From Escherichia phage vB_EcoM_NBG2: a DNA stretch of 64,000 nt. The DNA lies in sequence record NC_054925.1. One strand, written 5' to 3'. Shown piece after piece: positions 14,074 through 54,330 of the stretch; the first letter of the stretch is position 1, and each line of letters starts with the position of its first letter. The notes beneath the pieces were generated by a model. It was given only the letters and a program-made list of their open reading frames with translations. It made no database searches and was not told the origin of the DNA. A program made the position numbers and the translations under genes.

Positions 14074-15038
14074 TGTATTCTTTAGAGGAATTTAATAATC
14101 AAGCAATAAACGCAGATTTCCAACGTAATAATATGTTTAGCTGCGTTTTTGCGACAACTCCATCAACTAAAAGCTCTTCGTTGATAAGTTCAATTAGCAA
14201 CTTTTCTTATAATAACTTGGGCCTAAATTCAGATTGGTTAGGATTGACTCAAGGTGATATTAATCAGGGAATTACCACGCTAATTACAGCTGGCACACAA
14301 AAACTGATAAGAAAATCAGGGGTTAGTAAATATCTTATTGGTGCCATGAGTCAACGTACAGTTCAAAGTTTATTGGGCTCATTTACAGTTGGTACATATT
14401 TAATTGACTTCTTTAACATGGCATATAACTCATCTGGATTGATGATATATTCCGTAAAAATGCCAGAGAATAGATTATCCTATGAAACTGACTGGAACTA
14501 TAATTCTCCTAATATTCGTATAACTGGGAGAGAATTAGACCCTTTGGTTATTTCATTTAGAATGGATTCAGAAGCATGTAATTATCGTGCGATGCAAGAC
14601 TGGGTTAACGCTGTTCAAGACCCAGTAACTGGATTACGCGCTTTGCCACAAGATGTCGAGGCAGACATTCAGGTTAATCTTCATGCTCGCAATGGATTGC
14701 CTCATACTGCAGTGATGTTCACCGGATGCATTCCAGTGTCAGTGAGCGCTCCTGAGTTATCATATGATGGAGATAACCAAATAACTACATTTGATGTTAC
14801 TTTTGCGTATAGAGTCATGCAGGCTGGAGCAGTTGATAGACAAGCTGCGCTTGAATGGCTTGAATCTGCTGCTATAAACGGTATTCAAAGCGTTCTCGGA
14901 AATAGCGGAGGCGTTACTGGACTATCTAATTCGCTTTCACGACTTAGTAGATTAGGAGGAACTGCTGGAAGCATTTCAAACATTAATACTATGACGGGAA
15001 TTGTCAACTCGCAAAGTAAAATATTAGGAGCAATATAA
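14073..15038 (+). CDS. 54: baseplate tail tube initiator gp54
   Basis: 321 aa; start overlaps gp48 stop. Confidence 0.88.
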   Translation: MYSLEEFNNQAINADFQRNNMFSCVFATTPSTKSSSLISSISNFSYNNLGLNSDWLGLTQGDINQGITTLITAGTQKLIRKSGVSKYLIGAMSQRTVQSLLGSFTVGTYLIDFFNMAYNSSGLMIYSVKMPENRLSYETDWNYNSPNIRITGRELDPLVISFRMDSEACNYRAMQDWVNAVQDPVTGLRALPQDVEADIQVNLHARNGLPHTAVMFTGCIPVSVSAPELSYDGDNQITTFDVTFAYRVMQAGAVDRQAALEWLESAAINGIQSVLGNSGGVTGLSNSLSRLSRLGGTAGSISNINTMTGIVNSQSKILGAI

Positions 15039-15042
15039 CAAT

Positions 15043-15066
15043 GGGGACCTTTCGGTCCCCATGTTT
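15043..15066. terminator. bidirectional terminator hairpin between gene 54 and the alt cluster
   Basis: ggggacc-tttc-ggtcccc then T-run on plus strand; A-run precedes it. Confidence 0.6.
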
Positions 15067-15357
15067 TTATTTACGGAATGAAATAAAAGCAGCAACTGAA
15101 GCAACTAAACTGTCTTCAATATAAACTTCAATTTTTACCGGAGCTTCTGACTCAAATTTGCCTGTTACTACACCTTGGAAAATGCTTTCAGTCTGTTCTG
15201 GCTTTGAAAAATTTTCAGAAGGAAAAATTCCGAACTTTTTATCTGTTCCAAAAATTTTGATAAATTCATCATAAACTGCTTCATTAAAAGCGTTATCAGC
15301 AGGAATAACGCCTTCAACTACAAGTTCTTGACCTAAAAAGCGCAAAGAAGATTTCAT
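15067..15357 (-). CDS. hypothetical protein (T4 alt.-3 position)
   Basis: 96-aa ORF downstream of the alt genes, preceded by an early promoter. Confidence 0.55.
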   Translation of the reverse strand: MKSSLRFLGQELVVEGVIPADNAFNEAVYDEFIKIFGTDKKFGIFPSENFSKPEQTESIFQGVVTGKFESEAPVKIEVYIEDSLVASVAAFISFRK

Positions 15358-15373
15358 TTTGTGTTCCTCATGT

Positions 15374-15419
15374 TATGTCAGTAAGTTTACTATAACACAA
15401 CACGAGGGACTTGTAAACT
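15374..15419 (-). promoter_or_regulatory. T4 early-type promoter
   Basis: Minus strand GTTTACA-N17-TGtTATAGT; near-identical copy at 31328-31376. Confidence 0.5.
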
Positions 15420-17475
15420 ACATTTTGAACTTTTTAGACATTCCGTTAATATTAACCAAAGAAGCCAAGATTTGAGAAACTTCGTTTTCCTCTTCTTTTG
15501 ATTCTTCTACAAGGAATTGATTAAATCCAGTCATTGGACGAACTTCACCAGTTTCCATTAGATGGTCGCCATCATATACCGATTCTTCTAATTGTTCAGA
15601 AGGAGGAACGATTGTGCCTTCGATTAGATACTTGTTATAAGCAGTTTCTTTCATCATGTACGTACTCACTTTATTAATCTTCAGCAAAATTCCACGTGGT
15701 AAAATAACTTCAGCTTCTGATGGAAATCCTGATAAATGACCCGGAACGATAACTTTGATTCGCTCAGCTCCTTTAATTACCATACCTACGCTAGTTTCAG
15801 CATCTTCATTCGCATAAGCAGAGTGACTGCCCATATGCATCAAATCTTCTGCGTCAACTGAACCTTCTCCTTCACCAGAAAATACTGCACTGGAATCATC
15901 TAGGGCCATATAGTTTTTACCATACTCACCGAAGATATTTGGTTTAAGCGATGTGGATACGAAGTTCTTGAAATAGAACATTTTATTTTCAATATTATGA
16001 CGTAAAGTTTTAAAGGTAACTTCTTGGCCACGGTAAAGCGTAGTTCCTGGAGGAAGAACTGATCCTTTGGCAAAGGCAGAATCCATTGTCTCGATGTGTT
16101 TAATAGCTCGTTCCATATATTCTTCACGGGTAGAATCCGGTTTACCTAAAAGGAACGAGTTCATTTCAACATATGAATCTGCACAATAATCTTCAATTAC
16201 ATCAGACTCAGCTTGAGTTAATCCTTTTGGAGTTACTTCAGTACTTGCATATTCATACGCTTGAGAAGCAGACTCATTAATCAATTTATAAACGCCATTC
16301 ATGACAAATTGAACAATAGCTACCTTTTCATCTGGTGTGGCTTTAGAACCTTTAACTAAATCATTGACAATTTTCTTAATAACATCAAAGCTATTAGAAA
16401 TATTAATGTCAGCAAGATCGCTTAAAATTTTATCAGTTTTATAATCAAAAAATTCTTTATTCTTTAAATATTCTTGAGAACCTTGATATGTTATATCGCT
16501 CTGTAACTTGATAGATGGATCACGTAAACGCGCATGAGCCAATGCAATATGATTTCGGAAGCTTTCTAATTCATAATCACTAGATTTAAAACGGGAAGCA
16601 CTTCTCATACCACCGATAGCTCCTTTGCTGAAGTTTGAACCAACCTGAATAACGCCAGAGTTCATTGGTCCTTCTGCTTTATATACCGGAACTTTAGATT
16701 CAAACTCTTGATATTTCTTAGCAGCGAAGCTATCACCCTGAAGTGAAGCATCGACAGTAGAATATTGAGCTTGTGCTGCTAACCGACGACTAATTTTAGT
16801 TTTCTGAATAACAGCTTGATCCGTGCGCTTATCGTTTTCTAAAGCAATAGAAGCAGCAACAGCAACAGCTTTAGGAACAGCATTACCTGTTTTAACATCT
16901 ATATAAACATCACCAACCTTTGATTCAACTTTTGTGAATAACTCAGTTGAAATAGGAGGTACACCTGGAATGTCTTCTAAATTAGCATTTTTACGGTAAA
17001 CCATAATATATGCGTACTTTTTATCGTAATCCCAGATTTCCTTTAAAAGAACATATCGACCTGCTCCTTTAGTACGTACTAAACGGTCGGCAATAACTTG
17101 CATTTGACGAGCTGCACCATTTGTTTTACTCTTTAGTACGCGGAATAAGCATGCGTCAATTTTGTATTGTTTCATTGTCTGAAGAGCAGTATCAAAAACC
17201 GCATTAATGACACCAATTGGATTTCCACCCAAGTTTTTAAGTTTAACTAATGATAGTTTTTCATTGACCCCTATCATTACGATATGCATCATTTTATCGC
17301 CTGGCTTAACGTTTTTATTTGTATCACCGCCAGAGGTGTATGTACAAAATCTAAATCCAGGAAGCACGCTTTCTTCACCGGCTTGAATAGCAAAAATTTG
17401 AGGTATTTTATGCTTAGGATTTAAGTTAACAACCGGCGCCGAAGCGCCGTCAAATAATTCTGTAATAAGTTCCAT
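15418..17475 (-). CDS. Alt-like mono-ADP-ribosyltransferase, paralog A
   Basis: 685 aa; N-terminus MELITELFD... shared with paralog B; ART motifs LYRGQ, FVSTSL, SEAEVILPRG. Confidence 0.8.
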   Translation of the reverse strand: MELITELFDGASAPVVNLNPKHKIPQIFAIQAGEESVLPGFRFCTYTSGGDTNKNVKPGDKMMHIVMIGVNEKLSLVKLKNLGGNPIGVINAVFDTALQTMKQYKIDACLFRVLKSKTNGAARQMQVIADRLVRTKGAGRYVLLKEIWDYDKKYAYIMVYRKNANLEDIPGVPPISTELFTKVESKVGDVYIDVKTGNAVPKAVAVAASIALENDKRTDQAVIQKTKISRRLAAQAQYSTVDASLQGDSFAAKKYQEFESKVPVYKAEGPMNSGVIQVGSNFSKGAIGGMRSASRFKSSDYELESFRNHIALAHARLRDPSIKLQSDITYQGSQEYLKNKEFFDYKTDKILSDLADINISNSFDVIKKIVNDLVKGSKATPDEKVAIVQFVMNGVYKLINESASQAYEYASTEVTPKGLTQAESDVIEDYCADSYVEMNSFLLGKPDSTREEYMERAIKHIETMDSAFAKGSVLPPGTTLYRGQEVTFKTLRHNIENKMFYFKNFVSTSLKPNIFGEYGKNYMALDDSSAVFSGEGEGSVDAEDLMHMGSHSAYANEDAETSVGMVIKGAERIKVIVPGHLSGFPSEAEVILPRGILLKINKVSTYMMKETAYNKYLIEGTIVPPSEQLEESVYDGDHLMETGEVRPMTGFNQFLVEESKEEENEVSQILASLVNINGMSKKFKM

Positions 17476-17478
17476 GAT

Positions 17479-19575
17479 TTATCCTTGAACGAACTTGTAA
17501 GGCATGTTTGTAATATCTATGCAAGACGCAATAATTCCAAGAGATGATTCTACTTTCTGTTTAACATTTGATGAAACAAATGATGCAAAGTCAACTCTGT
17601 CTTCTATTTCAATATCATCTGTCATTGCAACTACTTCACCCGTTTCCATTAGACGGTCACCGTCATAAATTACTGATTCGGTGAGTTCTTCCGTAGTCAT
17701 AACTTCAGCTTGAATGAGTTTTGTATTATTAGATGTTGTTCCGTCATTATTAGAAGCATCAGTTATTTTATTAACTTTGACCATCAATCCGCGCGGTAGA
17801 ATAACTTCAGCTTCAGTTGCTATTCCGAGACTTCCTGGATATACAACATTAACTTTATGAGCTCCATCAATTGCCCATCCTATTTGAACTTTAACGTATT
17901 CAGGATTTTCTTTATACGCTCTTATTTCGTTTGGATTAATAGTTATTCCTTCTTCATTTTTATCAACTGTTAATTCATTACGAGCTTCTGGTTCTAAAAG
18001 ACCGATACCAGCATGTGTAATTCCAAAACGTCCAAAAATGATAGGAGTTAAAGAAGTAGATACAAAATTTCTGAAATAGAACACTTTATTTTTAACTAGC
18101 GCTTCGTATATAGGAGCAGTCATACTTTGAGCACGATAAACTGTAATGCCCTCTGGTATACGGTCACCATTTTCAAAAGCTGAATCTAAATTATTTATCG
18201 CAGATTCAATTTCTTTTTCACTCATTACATCATATCGTTCTGGATTGTAGCGGCCTAAAAGAAGATTATTGATGTCAGTATATCCTGATCCACAATACTC
18301 TCTAATGCCGCGCTTTTGCGATGGAGTATATTTAGAACCATCACGTGCAATGGTAATATCAATCATTGGACCTGCACCAATTCCAGAAAAGCTATAAATC
18401 ATTCGTTTGAGGAATTTAGTTTTTGCTGCGTTCCAGGAATTTTTAGTTATTTCTTCCCAGACTTCATCTGGCTGCCCTTTACGAGTTTTATTATGTTTAT
18501 CAAGCCAATTATCTTTATATTCTTCAAATAATTGATTAACAGCTGCTGCGTATTTCTCTAAACATTTTATTGAAGTAGTTGGTTCATTTTTAATCGCATT
18601 AAGAATTACATCTTTAATTTTTTCAGAAACTTCATTAACCTCACTTTTTGAAAAGAATTTATAGTCATAGTGAAGTTCATCTGCGGTTCCTTCGGCAATA
18701 ATTTTTGCTGCCTTAGTTTTAGAAGCTAATGAATTAATTCCAAGCTTCATTTCTTCTGCTTCGGGAATTAAAGGAGCTGTAGCAGGTTTATTGAAATTAG
18801 CTGCGGTAGATTCATATTTCTGGAATAATTCGCTTTCAAATCTAGAAGATTCTAATGACTGACTTTGTGCAATTGCTCTACGGGAAATTTTAACTTTAAC
18901 GATAACAGCTTGGTCAGAGCGTTTATCATTTTCTTGTGCAATAGATGCTGCAATTGCCTCATTTTTAGTTACTTGAGCTCCAGTATCTTTATTGATATAA
19001 ACATCGCCGACTTTCGATTCAACCTTAGTAAAGAGCTCGGTACTAATTTCAGGAACTCCTGGAATGTCTTCTAGTGATACATTTTTGCGATGTATAAGAA
19101 TATATGCGTACTTTTTATCATAATCCCAGAGTTCCTTAAGAAGGACGTATCTGCCACCTGAACGACTACGGATAAGTCTATCAGCAATAACTTGAATTTG
19201 TCGAGCTTGACCAGCAGTTTTAGACTTAAGAATACGAAGCATACAGGCATCAATTTTATACTGACGCATCGTCTGCATTGCAACAGTAAAAACTGAATTG
19301 ATGTAATTAATTGGGCTTGGACCGAGACCTTTTAATTTAGCAATTGAACCTTTAGCAGTTAATGTAAAAGGAACAATATGCATCATTTTATCGCCCATTT
19401 TTAAATCGCGATTAGTATCACCTCCAGATGTATAGGTACATAAACGAAAGCCTGGTTGTTCAATTGCATCATCAACATGAACTGAAAAAATTTGTGGTAT
19501 TTTCTTCTTTGGATTTAAGTTTGTAATCGGAAGAGTAGTATCTTCGTCAAATAATTCTGTAATGAGTTCCATCAT
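17479..19575 (-). CDS. alt: Alt ADP-ribosyltransferase, paralog B (late-promoter-proximal)
   Basis: 698 aa (697 from second Met); MELITELFDEDTTLPITNLNPKKK...; ART motifs VYRAQ, FVSTSL, TEAEVILPRG. Confidence 0.85.
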   Translation of the reverse strand: MMELITELFDEDTTLPITNLNPKKKIPQIFSVHVDDAIEQPGFRLCTYTSGGDTNRDLKMGDKMMHIVPFTLTAKGSIAKLKGLGPSPINYINSVFTVAMQTMRQYKIDACMLRILKSKTAGQARQIQVIADRLIRSRSGGRYVLLKELWDYDKKYAYILIHRKNVSLEDIPGVPEISTELFTKVESKVGDVYINKDTGAQVTKNEAIAASIAQENDKRSDQAVIVKVKISRRAIAQSQSLESSRFESELFQKYESTAANFNKPATAPLIPEAEEMKLGINSLASKTKAAKIIAEGTADELHYDYKFFSKSEVNEVSEKIKDVILNAIKNEPTTSIKCLEKYAAAVNQLFEEYKDNWLDKHNKTRKGQPDEVWEEITKNSWNAAKTKFLKRMIYSFSGIGAGPMIDITIARDGSKYTPSQKRGIREYCGSGYTDINNLLLGRYNPERYDVMSEKEIESAINNLDSAFENGDRIPEGITVYRAQSMTAPIYEALVKNKVFYFRNFVSTSLTPIIFGRFGITHAGIGLLEPEARNELTVDKNEEGITINPNEIRAYKENPEYVKVQIGWAIDGAHKVNVVYPGSLGIATEAEVILPRGLMVKVNKITDASNNDGTTSNNTKLIQAEVMTTEELTESVIYDGDRLMETGEVVAMTDDIEIEDRVDFASFVSSNVKQKVESSLGIIASCIDITNMPYKFVQG

Positions 19576-19595
19576 ATCCTCTCTAGTGTTTATTC

Positions 19596-19603
19596 TATTT
19601 ATA
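19596..19603 (-). promoter_or_regulatory. late promoter TATAAATA upstream of alt
   Basis: TATAAATA on minus strand about 20 nt upstream of the alt ATG. Confidence 0.55.
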
Positions 19604-19608
19604 AAATT

Positions 19609-19627
19609 AAAGGCCCGAAGGCCTTTA
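19609..19627 (-). terminator. terminator hairpin downstream of the gene 30 transcription unit
   Basis: aggcc-cgaa-ggcct stem-loop followed by T-rich tract on minus strand. Confidence 0.5.
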
Positions 19628-19813
19628 ATAATCTAGTGGTAAGAGAGTACGATATATTTCAAACTTTGGACCTTTTTCGTAGGCATCAAATGTTTCTGTA
19701 AATTTATTATAAGCATATGCATCTACAAATTCGAGAATGACTTGTGATACCGAAGTAGAAACATCTCCACCTTCTTTTTGAGCAACGACAATTGTTTCTA
19801 AGTAAGCTTTCAT
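19625..19813 (-). CDS. hypothetical small acidic protein
   Basis: 62-aa ORF whose start overlaps the ligase stop. Confidence 0.5.
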   Translation of the reverse strand: MKAYLETIVVAQKEGGDVSTSVSQVILEFVDAYAYNKFTETFDAYEKGPKFEIYRTLLPLDY

Positions 19814-21270
19814 AAACCAGTTACCTCATGAAAATCACCAAATACATCCTCGAATGTATTAGCTTTAGTTTTATCTTCACGTAAACGAATCGCAATTGGA
19901 AGAAATAATTTAACGTAATCAGTGCGACCATCAGATTTTAACCAACCATTGCATTCGCACTCTAGAATTTTTCCAATATAATAATTTTGGTTTTCCATAA
20001 TGCGAGTACGGTCAAGTTCATGTGATTTTACACCGGCTTTATCTTTTAAGCCTGAACCAGCATTTACTTTAATTTTTCCACACTCTGATTCAAGAATAAA
20101 TCCACCCGCTTTAGTAGGGTCTTTACGGTGAGGATAAATTCCTACAATTTTTAAATCAACATCAATTACTTCTTTAAATTTATAGAGATTTTTTGAACGA
20201 GCATTTTCCCACAATCCATCGGTATTTTTGAGAATAATACCTTCAAGACCTTGGTCAATATATTTTTTATAAATTACCTTAGCTTCATCTAGGTTATTTA
20301 CTACTTGGTTTTCAATTAAAATTACTTTATCATATCCTGATGTCATTTGTTCTAGTTTAGAAAAACGTACATCATATTTTAAACGAAACGCCGGAAGACC
20401 GTATATTTCTACCAACGGAACATAATCCCAGACCTGAAACTTCATACATTGGGCTTCTTTTTCTGAAATAGTTCCCTTTAAAGATTTATTAGCGATTCCA
20501 TTAGAAGCAGTACGAGATTCAGCTACTTCTGTGAAGTCTTTAGCTTTGCTAATTTCAGGAGTGTCAAAAAGAAAATCTAGGCCTTCTGGTTCCTTTTTAA
20601 CTTGCTCATGGTATACCAATTCGCCATCAATTAACACACCTTCTGGATGAATCTGGCGGGCTTCAGCGGTCATTTTGATTAACTCTTCCTTAAGAAGATC
20701 TAATCCTAGATATTCATTACCAGCTCGTGATAAAAGACGAACATCATCTAATTCATCTCCTCTGACTTCAGCAAAACACCGGGCTCCATCTGCTTTTAAC
20801 TGCGCAAAAGCTGGAAATTTGATATTCTTACTAATGCCTTTTTCATCATAAGAACTTGCAAGCATTTGAGGTTGTTCAGGAATTAAACCTGGCCAAACTT
20901 TGTTTGCAATAGATACTGAAGCACCGCATTCAAGGTCTCGCATCATAACTCGGCGCAAAACTTCAACATCATCCTTTTTACCATCGGTGATATATCCAGT
21001 TAATTCCTCAATTGCTGCATTTCCAGTCAATTTCCGAGTAGCTAACGTAAATTCAATAAAGTCAAGCATATCGGTAATGGTCAGCATTCCAAAACTCTGG
21101 GTAGCAATACCAGGCTTAGGCCATTTCTTGATATAATACTGTAACCCACGAGAATAAGTCAGACGATATACTCGTTTAAGCAATTCATTATCTTTATTCT
21201 TTTCAAGAATTGCTTGCTTCTGCTTAGTTGATCCAATAGATGCTATTTCATTCAGAATTTTAAGAATCAT
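19810..21270 (-). CDS. 30: ATP-dependent DNA ligase
   Basis: 486 aa, MILKILNEIASIGSTKQKQAILEKNKDNELLKRVYRL...; adenylation motif FAQLKADGARC (KxDG). Confidence 0.97.
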   Translation of the reverse strand: MILKILNEIASIGSTKQKQAILEKNKDNELLKRVYRLTYSRGLQYYIKKWPKPGIATQSFGMLTITDMLDFIEFTLATRKLTGNAAIEELTGYITDGKKDDVEVLRRVMMRDLECGASVSIANKVWPGLIPEQPQMLASSYDEKGISKNIKFPAFAQLKADGARCFAEVRGDELDDVRLLSRAGNEYLGLDLLKEELIKMTAEARQIHPEGVLIDGELVYHEQVKKEPEGLDFLFDTPEISKAKDFTEVAESRTASNGIANKSLKGTISEKEAQCMKFQVWDYVPLVEIYGLPAFRLKYDVRFSKLEQMTSGYDKVILIENQVVNNLDEAKVIYKKYIDQGLEGIILKNTDGLWENARSKNLYKFKEVIDVDLKIVGIYPHRKDPTKAGGFILESECGKIKVNAGSGLKDKAGVKSHELDRTRIMENQNYYIGKILECECNGWLKSDGRTDYVKLFLPIAIRLREDKTKANTFEDVFGDFHEVTGL

Positions 21271-50271: not shown

Positions 50272-53200
50272 ATGGCTACTTTAAAACAAATACAATTTAA
50301 AAGAAGCAAAACTGCAGGAGCACGTCCTGCCGCTTCAGTATTAGCCGAAGGTGAATTGGCTATAAACTTAAAAGACCGCGTACTTTTTACTAAAGACGAC
50401 CAAGGAAATATCATTGATCTTGGTTTTGCTAAGGGCGGTAGCATTGACGGGAATGTTATTCATATAGGAAACTATAATCAAACTGGTGATTATACTTTAA
50501 ATGGCGCTTTCACTCAGACAGGTAATTTTAATTTAACTGGTATTGCTCGAGTAACTCGCGATATTATTGCCGCCGGGCAGATTATGACTGAGGGCGGAGA
50601 ACTTATTACAAAAAGTTCAGGTACAGCGCATGTTCGTTTTTTCGATGGCAATAACCGCGAACGCGGAATAATTTATGCCCCGGCTAATGATGGATTAACT
50701 ACACAAGTACTTAATATCAGGGTTCAAGACTACGCCGCTGGTGATGAAAGCACCTATGCATTTTCAGGCAGTGGCCTATTTACTTCACCTGAAGTATCAG
50801 CATGGAAATCTATTTCGTCTCCACAAATTCTGACCGATAAAGTTATTACAGATGGGAAGAAGACGGGCGATTATGATATATCTTCATTAGCAAATAATAA
50901 TTCTGACACAGATAAAAACTATTTGCGCATTGTACGTACCGACCCAGCGGCCGCAATGCTCCATGAAATTTGTGAAAATAACGGCATCAGTTGGTATTCT
51001 GGTTCAACCCCTACTGATTACATGTTGTCATTTTCTTATTCCGGTGGGCTTCAAGCAGGCCATTCAATTGCAGTAGGTATGGAATCAAGTCCTATGACAT
51101 ATTCAGCCTTAGGTAAAGGTTCTATTGCTATTGGCGATAATGATACCGGATTTAAATGGCATCAGGACGGATATTTTCATGCAGTAAACAACGGAACAAG
51201 AACTTTCATTTACGGTCCTGCGGAAACACAAAGCCTTAGAAAAATGGTTATGGGTTATTCTCCGGATGGGATTCTTATGACAACGCCACCGACAGAAAAC
51301 TATGCATTAGCCACTGTTGTTACTTACCATGATAATAACGCGTATGGTGACGGTCAAACTCTTTTAGGATATTATCAAGGCGGTAACTATCATCACTATT
51401 TCCGCGGTAAGGGTACCACAAACATTAATACTCATGGCGGTTTGTTAGTTACTCCAGGCAATATTGACGTTATTGGTGGTTCGGTTAATATTGATGGTAG
51501 AAATAATAATTCAATTTTAATGTTTAAAGGCTATACCATGGGTCAAAGCTCCGTTGATAACATGTATATAGCTGTTTGGGGAAATACTTTTACTAATCCA
51601 AGTGAAGGCACCCGTAAAAATGTCATGGAAATTTCTGATGATATTGGATGGATGCATTATATTCAACGAACAACTGCGGGTAAAATCGAATCGGTTATAA
51701 ATGGCACCCAGATTGTTAATGAAAACTTTACAGTAGTAAAAAATGCTACATTTGACGGTACAATCAGCGCAGCCGGTGAAATCGCGACAAATGCTGTAAA
51801 TGGTCTTCGCATTTGGAACGCAGATTATGGAGCTATTTTTAGACGTTCAGAAGGCAGTCTTCATATTATTCCAACTGCTTATGGTGAAGGTAAACATGGC
51901 GATATCGGTCCACTTCGCCCGTTTAGTATGGCTTTAGATACCGGTAAAGTTACTATTCCAGATTTACAATCAAGTTACAATACGTTCGCTGCGAACGGCT
52001 ATATTAAATTTGTTGGTCATGGCGCTGGCGCTGGTGGTTATGATATTCAATATGTTCAAGCGGCTCCTATTTTCCAGGAAATCGATGATGATGCTGTAAA
52101 CAAATATTATCCGATTGTTAAGCAAAAATACCTTCAAGGTAAAGCAGTTTGGTCTTTAGGTACTGAAATTAATTCAGGTACATTCGTGATACACCATATC
52201 AAAGAAGATGGAACACAGGGCCATACATCAAGATTTAATGCTGATGGTACAGTTAACTTCCCGGATAACGTTCTGGTCGGCGGTGATATTAACATGAAAG
52301 GCTTGATGACTTTTGACGCCGGACGTTTAGGATCACGAGATTATTTTAAATTTAACCATTGGGGTGATAGCAATAACGCTCGTGATAACATCATCCAGTT
52401 AGAAGATAGTCAAGGCGCCCATTTTTCCACTGAACGTACTTTAGCGACAGGTGCAATTAAAACTCGTTTCTTTGGCGAAACATTCACTGATGGTACATTA
52501 TACTTAAATCAGATGAATAATAGCTCTGAACGATTCTCTATCAACAATTGGGGAAATTCAGAAGTTGGTCGCGCGGCAGTATTGGAAGTCGGCGATTCAA
52601 AAGGTTATCACTTCTATGCTGAACGCAGGACAGATAACAGTTTGATGTTTGATGTTGCTGGTTCTTTGACCGTGCATGGACCTAGCGGAATAACCATCAA
52701 AAACTCAACTGGTGCTCGCCATATCTGGTTTAGAGATGATAGCGATGCAGAAAAGGCTGTTATCTGGGCTACAGATGAGGGTATTTTACATATACGAAAT
52801 AATCATGGGGGTTCATTTAGTCATCACTTCCAGGGTGCAATGATTAAAGCGGGAGAGCAAGTTCCTTATAATAGTGAATACGCTCTTATCCGTGGTGATG
52901 TTTTTGGTGGTGCTTGGGATGACTGGCGCAACCGTCCTGCTGGTATTCTCTTAGATTGTCAGGATTCACATACCCGAGCATATTCAATTTGGAAAGCAAC
53001 TCATTGGGGTGTTGATCATCTTGCGGCAATGGGTGTTCATGCTGTCGGTGGTCAAGCTACCGTAATGATGCATATGAACAAAGGCGGCTGGTATTCATGG
53101 ACTGCAAATGGTGATTTCATATCTAGTGCGTCGGTTTACTGTAACGATGTTTATATTCGTTCCGACCGTCGTCTGAAAATTAACGTTGAAGACTACGAAG

Positions 53201-53514
53201 AAAATGCGGTAGATAAGGTAAATAAACTAAAAGTTAAAACCTACGATAAAGTTAAGTCTCTTTCTGACCGAGAAGTCATCGCACATGAGATTGGTATTAT
53301 CGCGCAGGATTTACAAGAAATTTTACCGGAAGCTGTTAGCACTTCTAATGTCGGATCTCTTGATAACCCAGAAGAGATTTTAACAATTTCTAACTCTACA
53401 GTGAATGCTCTTTTAATTAAGGCTATTCAGGAAATGAGTGAAGAAATTAAAGAATTGAAAACGCCTCTCTTTACTAAAATTGCTCGCAAAATTAGTAAAT
53501 ATTTTAAATTCTAA
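50272..53514 (+). CDS. 37: long tail fibre distal subunit gp37
   Basis: 1080 aa; MATLKQIQFKRSKTAGARPAASVLAEGELAINL... Confidence 0.92.
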   Translation: MATLKQIQFKRSKTAGARPAASVLAEGELAINLKDRVLFTKDDQGNIIDLGFAKGGSIDGNVIHIGNYNQTGDYTLNGAFTQTGNFNLTGIARVTRDIIAAGQIMTEGGELITKSSGTAHVRFFDGNNRERGIIYAPANDGLTTQVLNIRVQDYAAGDESTYAFSGSGLFTSPEVSAWKSISSPQILTDKVITDGKKTGDYDISSLANNNSDTDKNYLRIVRTDPAAAMLHEICENNGISWYSGSTPTDYMLSFSYSGGLQAGHSIAVGMESSPMTYSALGKGSIAIGDNDTGFKWHQDGYFHAVNNGTRTFIYGPAETQSLRKMVMGYSPDGILMTTPPTENYALATVVTYHDNNAYGDGQTLLGYYQGGNYHHYFRGKGTTNINTHGGLLVTPGNIDVIGGSVNIDGRNNNSILMFKGYTMGQSSVDNMYIAVWGNTFTNPSEGTRKNVMEISDDIGWMHYIQRTTAGKIESVINGTQIVNENFTVVKNATFDGTISAAGEIATNAVNGLRIWNADYGAIFRRSEGSLHIIPTAYGEGKHGDIGPLRPFSMALDTGKVTIPDLQSSYNTFAANGYIKFVGHGAGAGGYDIQYVQAAPIFQEIDDDAVNKYYPIVKQKYLQGKAVWSLGTEINSGTFVIHHIKEDGTQGHTSRFNADGTVNFPDNVLVGGDINMKGLMTFDAGRLGSRDYFKFNHWGDSNNARDNIIQLEDSQGAHFSTERTLATGAIKTRFFGETFTDGTLYLNQMNNSSERFSINNWGNSEVGRAAVLEVGDSKGYHFYAERRTDNSLMFDVAGSLTVHGPSGITIKNSTGARHIWFRDDSDAEKAVIWATDEGILHIRNNHGGSFSHHFQGAMIKAGEQVPYNSEYALIRGDVFGGAWDDWRNRPAGILLDCQDSHTRAYSIWKATHWGVDHLAAMGVHAVGGQATVMMHMNKGGWYSWTANGDFISSASVYCNDVYIRSDRRLKINVEDYEENAVDKVNKLKVKTYDKVKSLSDREVIAHEIGIIAQDLQEILPEAVSTSNVGSLDNPEEILTISNSTVNALLIKAIQEMSEEIKELKTPLFTKIARKISKYFKF

Positions 53515-53550: not shown

Positions 53551-54330
53551 ATGGCAGTAGTTGGAGTTCCTGGCTGGATTGGAAGTTCAGCCGTAAATGA
53601 AACGGGTCAGCGCTGGATGAGTCAAGCAGCTGGTCAATTAAGATTGGGTGTTCCTTGCTGGATGAGTCAATTTGCAGGTCGCTCAAGAGAAATTATTCAT
53701 ACACTTGGAGCAGACCATAACTTCAATGGTCAATGGTTCCGAGATAGATGTTTTGAGGCAGGTAGTACACCTATAGTGTTTAATATCACTGGAGATTTAG
53801 TATCATATTCTAAAGATGTTCCTTTATTCTTCATGTACGGAGATACACCGAATGAATATGTTCAGTTGAATATACACGGCGTAACGATGTATGGACGTGG
53901 CGGTAATGGCGGTAGCAATAGTCCTGGTTCAGCTGGAGGTCATTGTATTCAAAACGATATTGGTGGGAGACTAAGAATTAATAATGGCGGAGCTATTGCT
54001 GGAGGCGGCGGTGGCGGCGGCGGCGGCAACAGGGGTAGACTATCCTTTGGCGGCGGAGGCGGTCGTCCATTTGGCGCTGGTGGGTCTTCCTCTCATATGA
54101 GTGCTGGTGCAACCAGCGGCACTATTTACGCTCCGGGTGCAGGATCTGTCGGTGAGGGGTCTCTTAGTGCATATACAGGCGGGAATGGCGGTGAAGTTGG
54201 CTCCGCAGGAGGTAGATGTAATACTCACGGTACCGGTACAGAATATGACGGCGGTGCTGCTGGTTATGCCGTCATAGGGTCTACACCGACATGGCAAAAT
54301 GTTGGAGCAATATATGGTCCAAGAGTATAA
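53551..54330 (+). CDS. 38: gp38 receptor-recognising adhesin, T2-type with glycine-rich motifs
   Basis: 259 aa; several Gly-rich blocks ([36 protein letters not shown]). Confidence 0.85.
54001..54063 (+). repeat. GGC/GGT trinucleotide tract encoding poly-Gly in gp38
   Basis: ggaggcggcggtggcggcggcggcggc ... cggcggaggcggt. Confidence 0.8.

Follow-up and report, generated by a model that had tools for sequence, protein, structure and literature searches.

Two intact Alt-like ADP-ribosyltransferase genes in tandem in Escherichia phage vB_EcoM_NBG2, and a remnant of the second in phage T4

Phage T4 carries a single 682-aa alt gene for its head-packaged NAD+:arginine mono-ADP-ribosyltransferase (ART), followed by two small reading frames, alt.-1 (NP_049810) and alt.-2 (NP_049809). 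In the 64,000-nt stretch of Escherichia phage vB_EcoM_NBG2 that was analyzed here (NC_054925.1; referred to as the window, in whose coordinates all positions are given), two large alt-like genes follow each other. This raises the questions of whether the second gene is a functional paralog of alt, how it relates to the small frames of T4, and what two such proteins would do for the phage. From the evidence presented below it is considered probable that both proteins are arginine ARTs that are packaged in the head, injected into the host and directed at diverged ranges of targets, and that their genes form a late operon.

The upstream gene (copy 1) occupies 17479-19575 and the downstream paralog (copy 2) 15418-17475, both on the (-) strand. 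An earlier note, made from the sequence alone, had described two co-oriented open reading frames (ORFs) of 698 and 685 aa that are 3 nt apart (17476-17478) and had set them against the T4 arrangement given above; the coordinates and the T4 record bear out both. The ORF of copy 2 is intact. That of copy 1 opens with ATGATG, and its Shine-Dalgarno (SD) sequence GAGAGGA (19577-19583 (-)) leaves a spacing of 2 nt to the first ATG and of 5 nt to the second. Because this SD is better spaced to the second ATG at 19572, and because the annotations of T4, PP01, T2 and T6 begin with MELITE, copy 1 most likely starts at 19572 and yields a product of 697 aa (MELITE...).

When the two proteins were compared by BLASTP, they aligned end to end with 41% identity (E = 2e-158). 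Identity is 68% (162/237) over aa 1-238 of copy 1, drops to 21% with many gaps over aa 239-410, amounts to about 33-34% over the ART core at aa 411-630 and is 42% over aa 631-697, where SxxYDGDxLMETGE and a terminal M..KF are common to both. The N-terminal ~200 aa are therefore not near-identical, as the earlier note had held, and neither the central regions nor the extreme C-termini are unrelated: the central 174 aa of copy 2 match positions 248-410 of phrog_802 with E = 3.9e-20. This family ('Alt-like RNA polymerase ADP-ribosyltransferase') covers residues 1-696 of the 697 aa of copy 1 (E = 3.9e-272) and residues 1-685 of the 685 aa of copy 2 (E = 2.8e-255). The alignments indicate that the two copies are homologous along their entire length, with a very uneven divergence.

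Both proteins have the ART fold of the T4 Alt family. PF03496 (ADPrib_exo_Tox) scored 129.2 bits in copy 1 (E = 1.6e-37) and 73.3 bits in copy 2, at a curated cut-off of 23.4 bits. The R/S/E triad that had been read from the sequence is present in both, in the motifs YRAQ (479-482), FVSTSL (503-508) and EAEVILPRG (587-595) of copy 1 and YRGQ (481-484), FVSTSL (505-510) and EAEVILPRG (587-595) of copy 2. In a family alignment of 59 sequences, for which residue positions are given in copy 2 numbering, the catalytic columns were almost invariant (R482 58/59, S507 58/59, S509 57/59, E587 57/59 and E589 58/59). The consensus catalytic R, S-T-S and E-x-E residues are all found in the two window proteins, so that no catalytic residue has been lost from either copy on alignment with the T4 Alt family. 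An AlphaFold2 model of copy 2 (pLDDT 80.9) consists of an alpha/beta N domain up to ~aa 200, an all-helical part at ~aa 200-470 and the ART beta core at aa 480-625. On the DNA, all on the (-) strand, the N domain, helical centre, ART core and predicted C-propeptide correspond to 18859-19572, 18343-18858, 17677-18342 and 17482-17676 in copy 1 and to 16762-17475, 16231-16761, 15583-16230 and 15421-15582 in copy 2. A sequence search of the PDB found no solved structure of an Alt protein, and NCBIfam and PADLOC scans gave zero matches.

The window proteins were compared with other ARTs of the R-S-E clade, to which the toxins Vis, Certhrax, C3, iota/CdtA/C2-I/VIP2, SpvB and ExoS belong. The binary toxins VIP2, iota Ia, C2-I and CdtA combine an N-terminal ART-like adaptor with a C-terminal enzyme, whereas no second ART-like domain is present in the window proteins, and a binary-toxin adaptor architecture was not found for them. 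Their predicted route of delivery is ejection from the phage head, whereas the toxins use a pore-forming B component or a secretion system. A fusion of the MuF or polyvalent head-packaged type was also rejected, as no Pfam family besides PF03496 was detected in either protein or in the 59 family members. The Mod enzymes of T4 are single-domain proteins of ~200 aa that are produced early in infection and are not known to be packaged. The window proteins, with 685 and 697 aa, several domains, a late promoter and prohead motifs, are set apart by this description from ModA and ModB, although these are phage ARTs of the same clade that, according to the literature, act on host transcription and translation proteins.

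Signals for expression were read from the sequence of the locus. A T4-type late promoter with a perfect octamer, TATAAATA, is located at 19596-19603 (-), 21 nt 5' of the first ATG of copy 1. As had been claimed, it precedes only the upstream copy, and it is the sole perfect late-promoter match on the (-) strand between 15000 and 19900. Copy 2 has an SD of its own, AAGGA, within the last codons of copy 1 (17482-17486 (-), 6 nt before the ATG at 17475; ...caAGGAtaaatcATG). When a separate promoter for copy 2 was looked for, no perfect late octamer was found; octamers with one mismatch occur only 440-1,520 nt upstream of its start, and the one MotA-box-like match lies inside copy 2 rather than upstream of it. 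No terminator-like site was found between the two copies or directly 3' of copy 2. Because there is one late promoter, no terminator or further perfect late promoter between the genes, a gap of only 3 nt and an SD for copy 2, the simplest reading is one late mRNA spanning both alt genes and running on into alt.-3, which agrees with the co-transcription that the earlier note had proposed.

The relation of copy 2 to the small frames of T4 becomes apparent at the DNA level. Over the initial ~360 nt, the T4 sequence matches copy 2 at nearly every position; it then skips to the four terminal codons of this gene and continues into the sequence downstream of them. Two lesions separate the T4 sequence from an intact gene. 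In the first, one A is missing from a run of A residues, so that the reading frame is broken up into alt.-1 and alt.-2. In the second, 1,699 bp are gone between imperfect 9-bp direct repeats, CTAAAGAGT and CTAAAAAGT. In the alignment of the T4 alt.-1/alt.-2 DNA to the window, the left repeat CTAAAGAGT is found at 17128-17136 (-) and the right repeat CTAAAAAGT at 15429-15437 (-), four codons before the stop of copy 2; the right repeat is the copy retained at the T4 deletion junction. This also explains the C-terminus of T4 alt.-2, SLQVPRVVL, since it is translated from DNA just downstream of the copy 2 stop. The PHROG families of alt.-1 and alt.-2 match copy 2 at 2e-40 and 3e-38, respectively, and copy 1 at 1e-21 and 2e-19. 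In the T4 record, alt.-1 and alt.-2 are put down to an ancient duplication of the beginning of alt. The alignment shows instead that they are a deletion remnant of a complete second alt gene, rather than a partial duplication, and copy 2 is the full-length form of alt.-1 plus alt.-2.

The two-gene arrangement itself is not new. For the region 15000-19900, megablast returned 385 phage records with 90-98% identity over at least 80% of its length, and many of these carry the annotation 'Alt-like RNA polymerase ADP-ribosyltransferase (x2)'. By tblastn, 395 phage records contain copy 2 with an identity of 95% or more, and in 20 of 20 sampled records with at least 96% identity it aligned as a single piece, residues 1-685. 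A 401-nt probe for the T4 deletion junction matched contiguously in only 91 records, T4 included. The two-gene form is by far the commoner among the deposited records (about four in five T4-like records with the locus) and T4 represents the minority state. Like the window, T2 and T6 both have an alt pair of 2,094 nt and 2,058 nt. The second alt of T2 (BBC14817), T6 (AXN58232) and PP01 (YP_010073571) is the same gene as copy 2, with 2,058 nt, at the corresponding position 3 nt after an alt of 2,094 nt; its DNA is 97% identical to that of copy 2 and no structural difference was observed. It is labelled 'hypothetical protein' in T2 and 'Alt-like RNA polymerase ADP-ribosyltransferase' in the RefSeq record of PP01, and T6 carries the remark 'apparent insertion in alt.-2; also similar to alt'. 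In a wider circle, 44RR ORF187c/188c and RB49 ORF183c are tandem alt paralogs that adjoin alt as in the window, which Nolan et al. (2006, PMC1524935) noted as paralogs that stem from duplication of a conserved gene; the duplication of the Aeromonas phage 44RR is full-length, and 44RR and the E. coli phage RB49 belong to other genera than the window. The earlier note had allowed that the arrangement might already be characterised in the reference phage: it is annotated in the deposited genomes of T2, T6 and PP01 and of hundreds of other Tequatrovirus phages, but it is absent from T4 itself, and no functional study of the second paralog was found, the searchable literature yielding nothing relevant beyond Nolan et al. 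(2006).

Among the clustered sequences of copy 2, three clusters (P0005, P0008 and P0010, with 36, 7 and 12 members at 97-99% identity) are N-terminally short, with 624, 528 and 415 aa, respectively. These may be alternative start calls or independent disruptions.

The T4 remnant, shared with 90 further records in frameshifted and deleted form, could suggest that copy 2 is a decaying duplicate, recently disabled or neutral and heading to the T4 state, and the few truncated clusters could be read in the same way. The substitution pattern makes this very improbable. The ratio of non-synonymous to synonymous substitution rates (dN/dS) was determined for the window, PP01, T2 and T6, at synonymous rates (dS) of 0.08-0.26. 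For copy 2 it was 0.027-0.054, with 48-97 synonymous versus 5-20 non-synonymous differences, and for copy 1 (window compared with PP01, T2 and T6) it was 0.024-0.052. Between the window and T2, copy 2 has 97 synonymous and 20 non-synonymous differences (dN/dS 0.048). In the central segment dN/dS was ~0.11-0.12 in both copies, which is looser but still purifying, and in the ART segment of copy 2 it was 0.035. Both copies are under strong purifying selection. With dN/dS of 0.03-0.05 and 685-codon ORFs that are intact in T2, T6 and PP01 as well as in all of the sampled records, a pseudogene state of copy 2 is rejected. Between the paralogs dS is saturated (~1.3-1.5), and therefore the duplication is old.

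T4 Alt is an internal head protein associated with the core, present in ~40 copies per head and ejected together with the DNA (PMC9026906). Mass spectrometry of virions showed that it is trimmed by the protease gp21, which cuts off six residues at ITE-6 and a further 63 at LTE-619 (PMC5694885). At the level of motifs, ITE-6 is present in both copies, and the C-terminal site reads LTE-632 in copy 1 and LEE-631 in copy 2; both copies begin with MELITE, and in both the C-terminal motif immediately precedes S-x-x-YDGD. In the family alignment, the P1 glutamates of the two sites are conserved (E6 56/59, E631 56/59) and P3 is Leu, Ile, Val or Met in nearly all sequences. In the model of copy 2, the stretch 630-636, which surrounds the C-terminal site, is disordered, as would suit a protease-accessible linker. 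The predicted mature proteins would be ~70 kDa for copy 1 and ~69 kDa for copy 2. Taken together, the motifs give good indirect support for copy 2 being prohead-resident and processed by gp21 as well.

The earlier note had explained the uneven divergence by one injection and packaging module fused to two different target-recognition regions. This picture is not supported, given the homology from end to end and an N domain that is not portable. The N domain is found in only 69 clusters among 1.84 billion representative proteins, always at the N-terminus (start at residue 1-27) of proteins of ~600-710 aa. As 57 of the 59 scanned carriers have PF03496 and no other Pfam family, a generic delivery module on varied effectors is ruled out. 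The N domains of copies 1 and 2 are each other's closest relatives (about 68-69%). In the ART core, copy 2 is nearer to a Merlin/KM16-like Alt (49%) and copy 1 nearer to an S16-like Alt (55%), compared with ~33-34% between the two copies, a pattern that agrees with effector halves having been exchanged among lineages, or with an ancient duplication followed by differential loss. Recent gene conversion as the cause of the similar N domains is ruled out by the saturated dS (~1.5) and a nucleotide identity of 68%; because synonymous divergence between the paralogs is saturated, the similarity reflects constraint. A weak structural hint was obtained in the resemblance of the N domain to GNAT-fold acyltransferases. 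A profile of 22 N domains gave no match against PDB sequences at E up to 10, and the N domains had no Pfam match even at E up to 10. It is a possibility that the fold of this shared domain is that of a GNAT-like acyltransferase, in which case it would do more than serve in packaging.

Combining these observations, the following course of events is proposed. Both alt genes would be transcribed from the late promoter at 19596-19603, with copy 2 translated from its own SD. Each product would consist of an Alt-specific alpha/beta N domain of ~230 aa, an all-helical middle, an R-S-ExE ART core and a C-terminal tail of ~55-65 aa. As both proteins keep the gp21 sites that were mapped in T4 Alt, both would enter the prohead core, be trimmed at both ends to ~69-70 kDa and be ejected with the DNA. 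In the host they would mono-ADP-ribosylate arginines of host proteins with NAD+ in the first moments of infection. The two enzymes would probably modify different sets of host proteins, because the helical centre (21% identity) and the surface loops of the ART core (34%) have diverged beyond easy alignment.

Several observations weigh against this scheme. T4 and the 90 further records with the deletion lack copy 2, so that, on laboratory hosts at least, it can be dispensed with. Having no promoter of its own, copy 2 depends on read-through from copy 1. The proposal of distinct targets derives solely from divergence, and the searchable literature yielded no proteomic, transcript or enzymatic data on the second paralog. 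Moreover, the Pfam ART score of copy 2 is below that of copy 1 (73 versus 129 bits), and in its model the large insertion that separates the STS motif from the ExE strand, aa 518-553, is disordered. The last two points, together with the lack of direct packaging evidence for copy 2 and an N domain that is conserved above the enzyme part (68% versus 34%), would also suit a protein that is not an injected enzyme at all. Copy 2 could then be made late and act in the producing cell, or assist Alt in the prohead core in a structural or regulatory role, such as that of a scaffold-bound adaptor, with an ART activity that is weak or irrelevant. This is regarded as improbable, since every catalytic residue of copy 2 is intact and family-invariant, the ART segment is itself under the purifying selection described above, and the retention of both gp21 glutamates is sensible only in a prohead-resident protein.

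The identical architecture, catalytic residues and processing motifs of the two copies leave room for another explanation, in which copy 2 would be packaged and enzymatically active yet share essentially all of its substrates with copy 1, namely RNA polymerase alpha and the rest of the broad Alt target set, so that it would serve as a dosage copy that provides more injected enzyme or a buffer against loss. The loss of copy 2 in T4 without known phenotype is compatible with this, as is the promiscuity of T4 Alt, for which many targets were reported (Depping 2005, as referred to in PMC9503650). However, the centre and ART core of the two copies are only 21% and 34% identical with dS saturated at ~1.3-1.5, each copy is held at dN/dS ~0.03-0.05 in T2, T6 and PP01, which is unexpected for a pure dosage duplicate, and the ART cores are nearer to the Alts of other genera named above than to each other. 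A purely redundant copy with these shared targets is thus considered unlikely, though somewhat less so than a non-injected protein, and two injected ARTs with diverged targets are preferred.

Copy 1 is the positional orthologue of T4 alt (NP_049811), and the T4 protein shares with both copies the family phrog_802, the four-part layout, the catalytic residues and the gp21 motifs. Over aa 1-238, copy 1 and T4 Alt are identical in 237 of 238 residues, but identity is 32% over aa 239-410 and 66% over the ART core (aa 411-630), and rises to 92% over the last 65 residues (aa 631-697 segment). The corresponding values for copy 2 and T4 Alt are 68%, 17%, 36% and 44%. Relative to T4 Alt, copy 1 is a mosaic allele, with a different allele in the effector part. 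The diverged cassette, which comprises the helical centre and most of the ART core (aa ~245-600), lies at 17677-18858. In phage records it is at least 90% identical in 317 and 80-90% identical in 34, whereas it is below ~50% in the remainder including T4; therefore discrete alleles of the effector half circulate between conserved flanks. In phage HP3.1, an intact copy 2 is paired with an alt allele of 684 aa that is T4-like, and therefore recombination reassorts the two alt genes. Biochemistry is known for T4 Alt, which acts on RNA polymerase alpha and MazF and is involved in evasion of Mokosh. Because the centre and ART core are only 32% and 66% identical, the activities of T4 Alt cannot be assumed even for copy 1. 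That Alt variants can differ in function has a precedent: plating against Mokosh type I is partially rescued by Alt of T4 but not by the variant from phage Bas37 (preprint 10.1101/2025.11.20.689424); the second alt paralog is not mentioned in this preprint.

A more far-reaching proposal can be made tentatively. Copy 2 might be a distinct injected effector that was lost by T4 and that modifies other targets than Alt, possibly a host defence or toxin-antitoxin component, for which the action of T4 Alt on MazF and its help in evading Mokosh type I provide a parallel. The second paralog would then never have been studied because the model phage T4 lost it by deletion. The same proposal, with the same reserve, would make alt an arms-race locus, in which the cassette at ~aa 245-600 is swapped while the N domain and both propeptides remain fixed for incorporation into the head.

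The neighbourhood of the two genes is that of a standard T-even phage, with genes 48 and 54 on the (+) strand and alt.-3, both alts, alt.1 and the DNA ligase gene 30 on the (-) strand. As in T4, the alt locus has a late promoter and is positioned between gene 54/alt.-3 and alt.1/gene 30. The product of alt.1 (19625-19813 (-), 62 aa) matches the Pfam 'Phage blade protein' family PF24647 with E = 2.2e-29. Right after the alt.1 stop, a terminator-like hairpin (AAAGGCC-TTCG-GGCCTTT followed by a T-rich tract, 19609-19626 (-)) was read from the sequence; a consensus terminator scanner did not flag it. It is a probable terminator that would keep early and middle transcripts from upstream out of the alt operon. 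In 5 of 6 T4-like genomes, a terminator is conserved on the upstream side of alt (Nolan et al. 2006, PMC1524935).

On the other side, alt.-3 (15067-15357 (-)) encodes a 96-aa DUF5498 protein (PF17602, E = 1.4e-64) that is a neighbour and not an ART. Just after the copy 2 stop, a strong early-type sigma-70 promoter, TTTACA-17-TATAGT with a TG element, was identified at 15389-15417 (-), with 10 of 12 matches the best of the region. It would drive alt.-3 independently of the late alt transcript, which probably also reaches this gene by read-through. In the gap that separates alt.-3 (-) from gene 54 (+), a bidirectional hairpin at 15041-15062 (both strands; 9-bp stem, 6 of its pairs GC) is the first terminator-like site downstream of both alt genes. 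In T4, mutants with C-terminal extensions of Alt.-3 evade CmdTAC defence via stabilisation of CmdA (10.1101/2024.02.24.581662), and such extensions come from read-through into the DNA ahead of the bidirectional terminator at 15041-15062.

Elsewhere in the 64-kb window, ARAGORN identified no tRNA genes, which places the T-even tRNA cluster outside it. The ORFs at 50272-53514 (+) (1,080 aa) and 53551-54330 (+) (259 aa) are, by size and position, presumably gp37 and a gp38 adhesin of the T2/T6 type. The T4-type gp38 is shorter, and a T2/T6-type gp38 would suit a T2/T6-like alt locus.

These results leave the type of system itself unchanged. What they add is the exact origin of alt.-1 and alt.-2, the census of ~395 versus 91 records, the selection on both genes, the predicted protease sites in copy 2 and the mosaicism of copy 1. 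For annotation, the reading of alt.-1 and alt.-2 as a partial duplication is corrected, and the second gene of T2 and T6 could be named as an Alt paralog. Nearly all knowledge of Alt comes from T4, which has the minority, deleted form of the locus, and many of the two-copy records also carry an alt allele with an effector half strongly unlike that of T4. If both proteins are injected, these phages would enter the cell with two ARTs, which bears on host takeover and on the evasion of defence and provides a lead for work on injected effectors and anti-defence in phages of the T2/T6 type.

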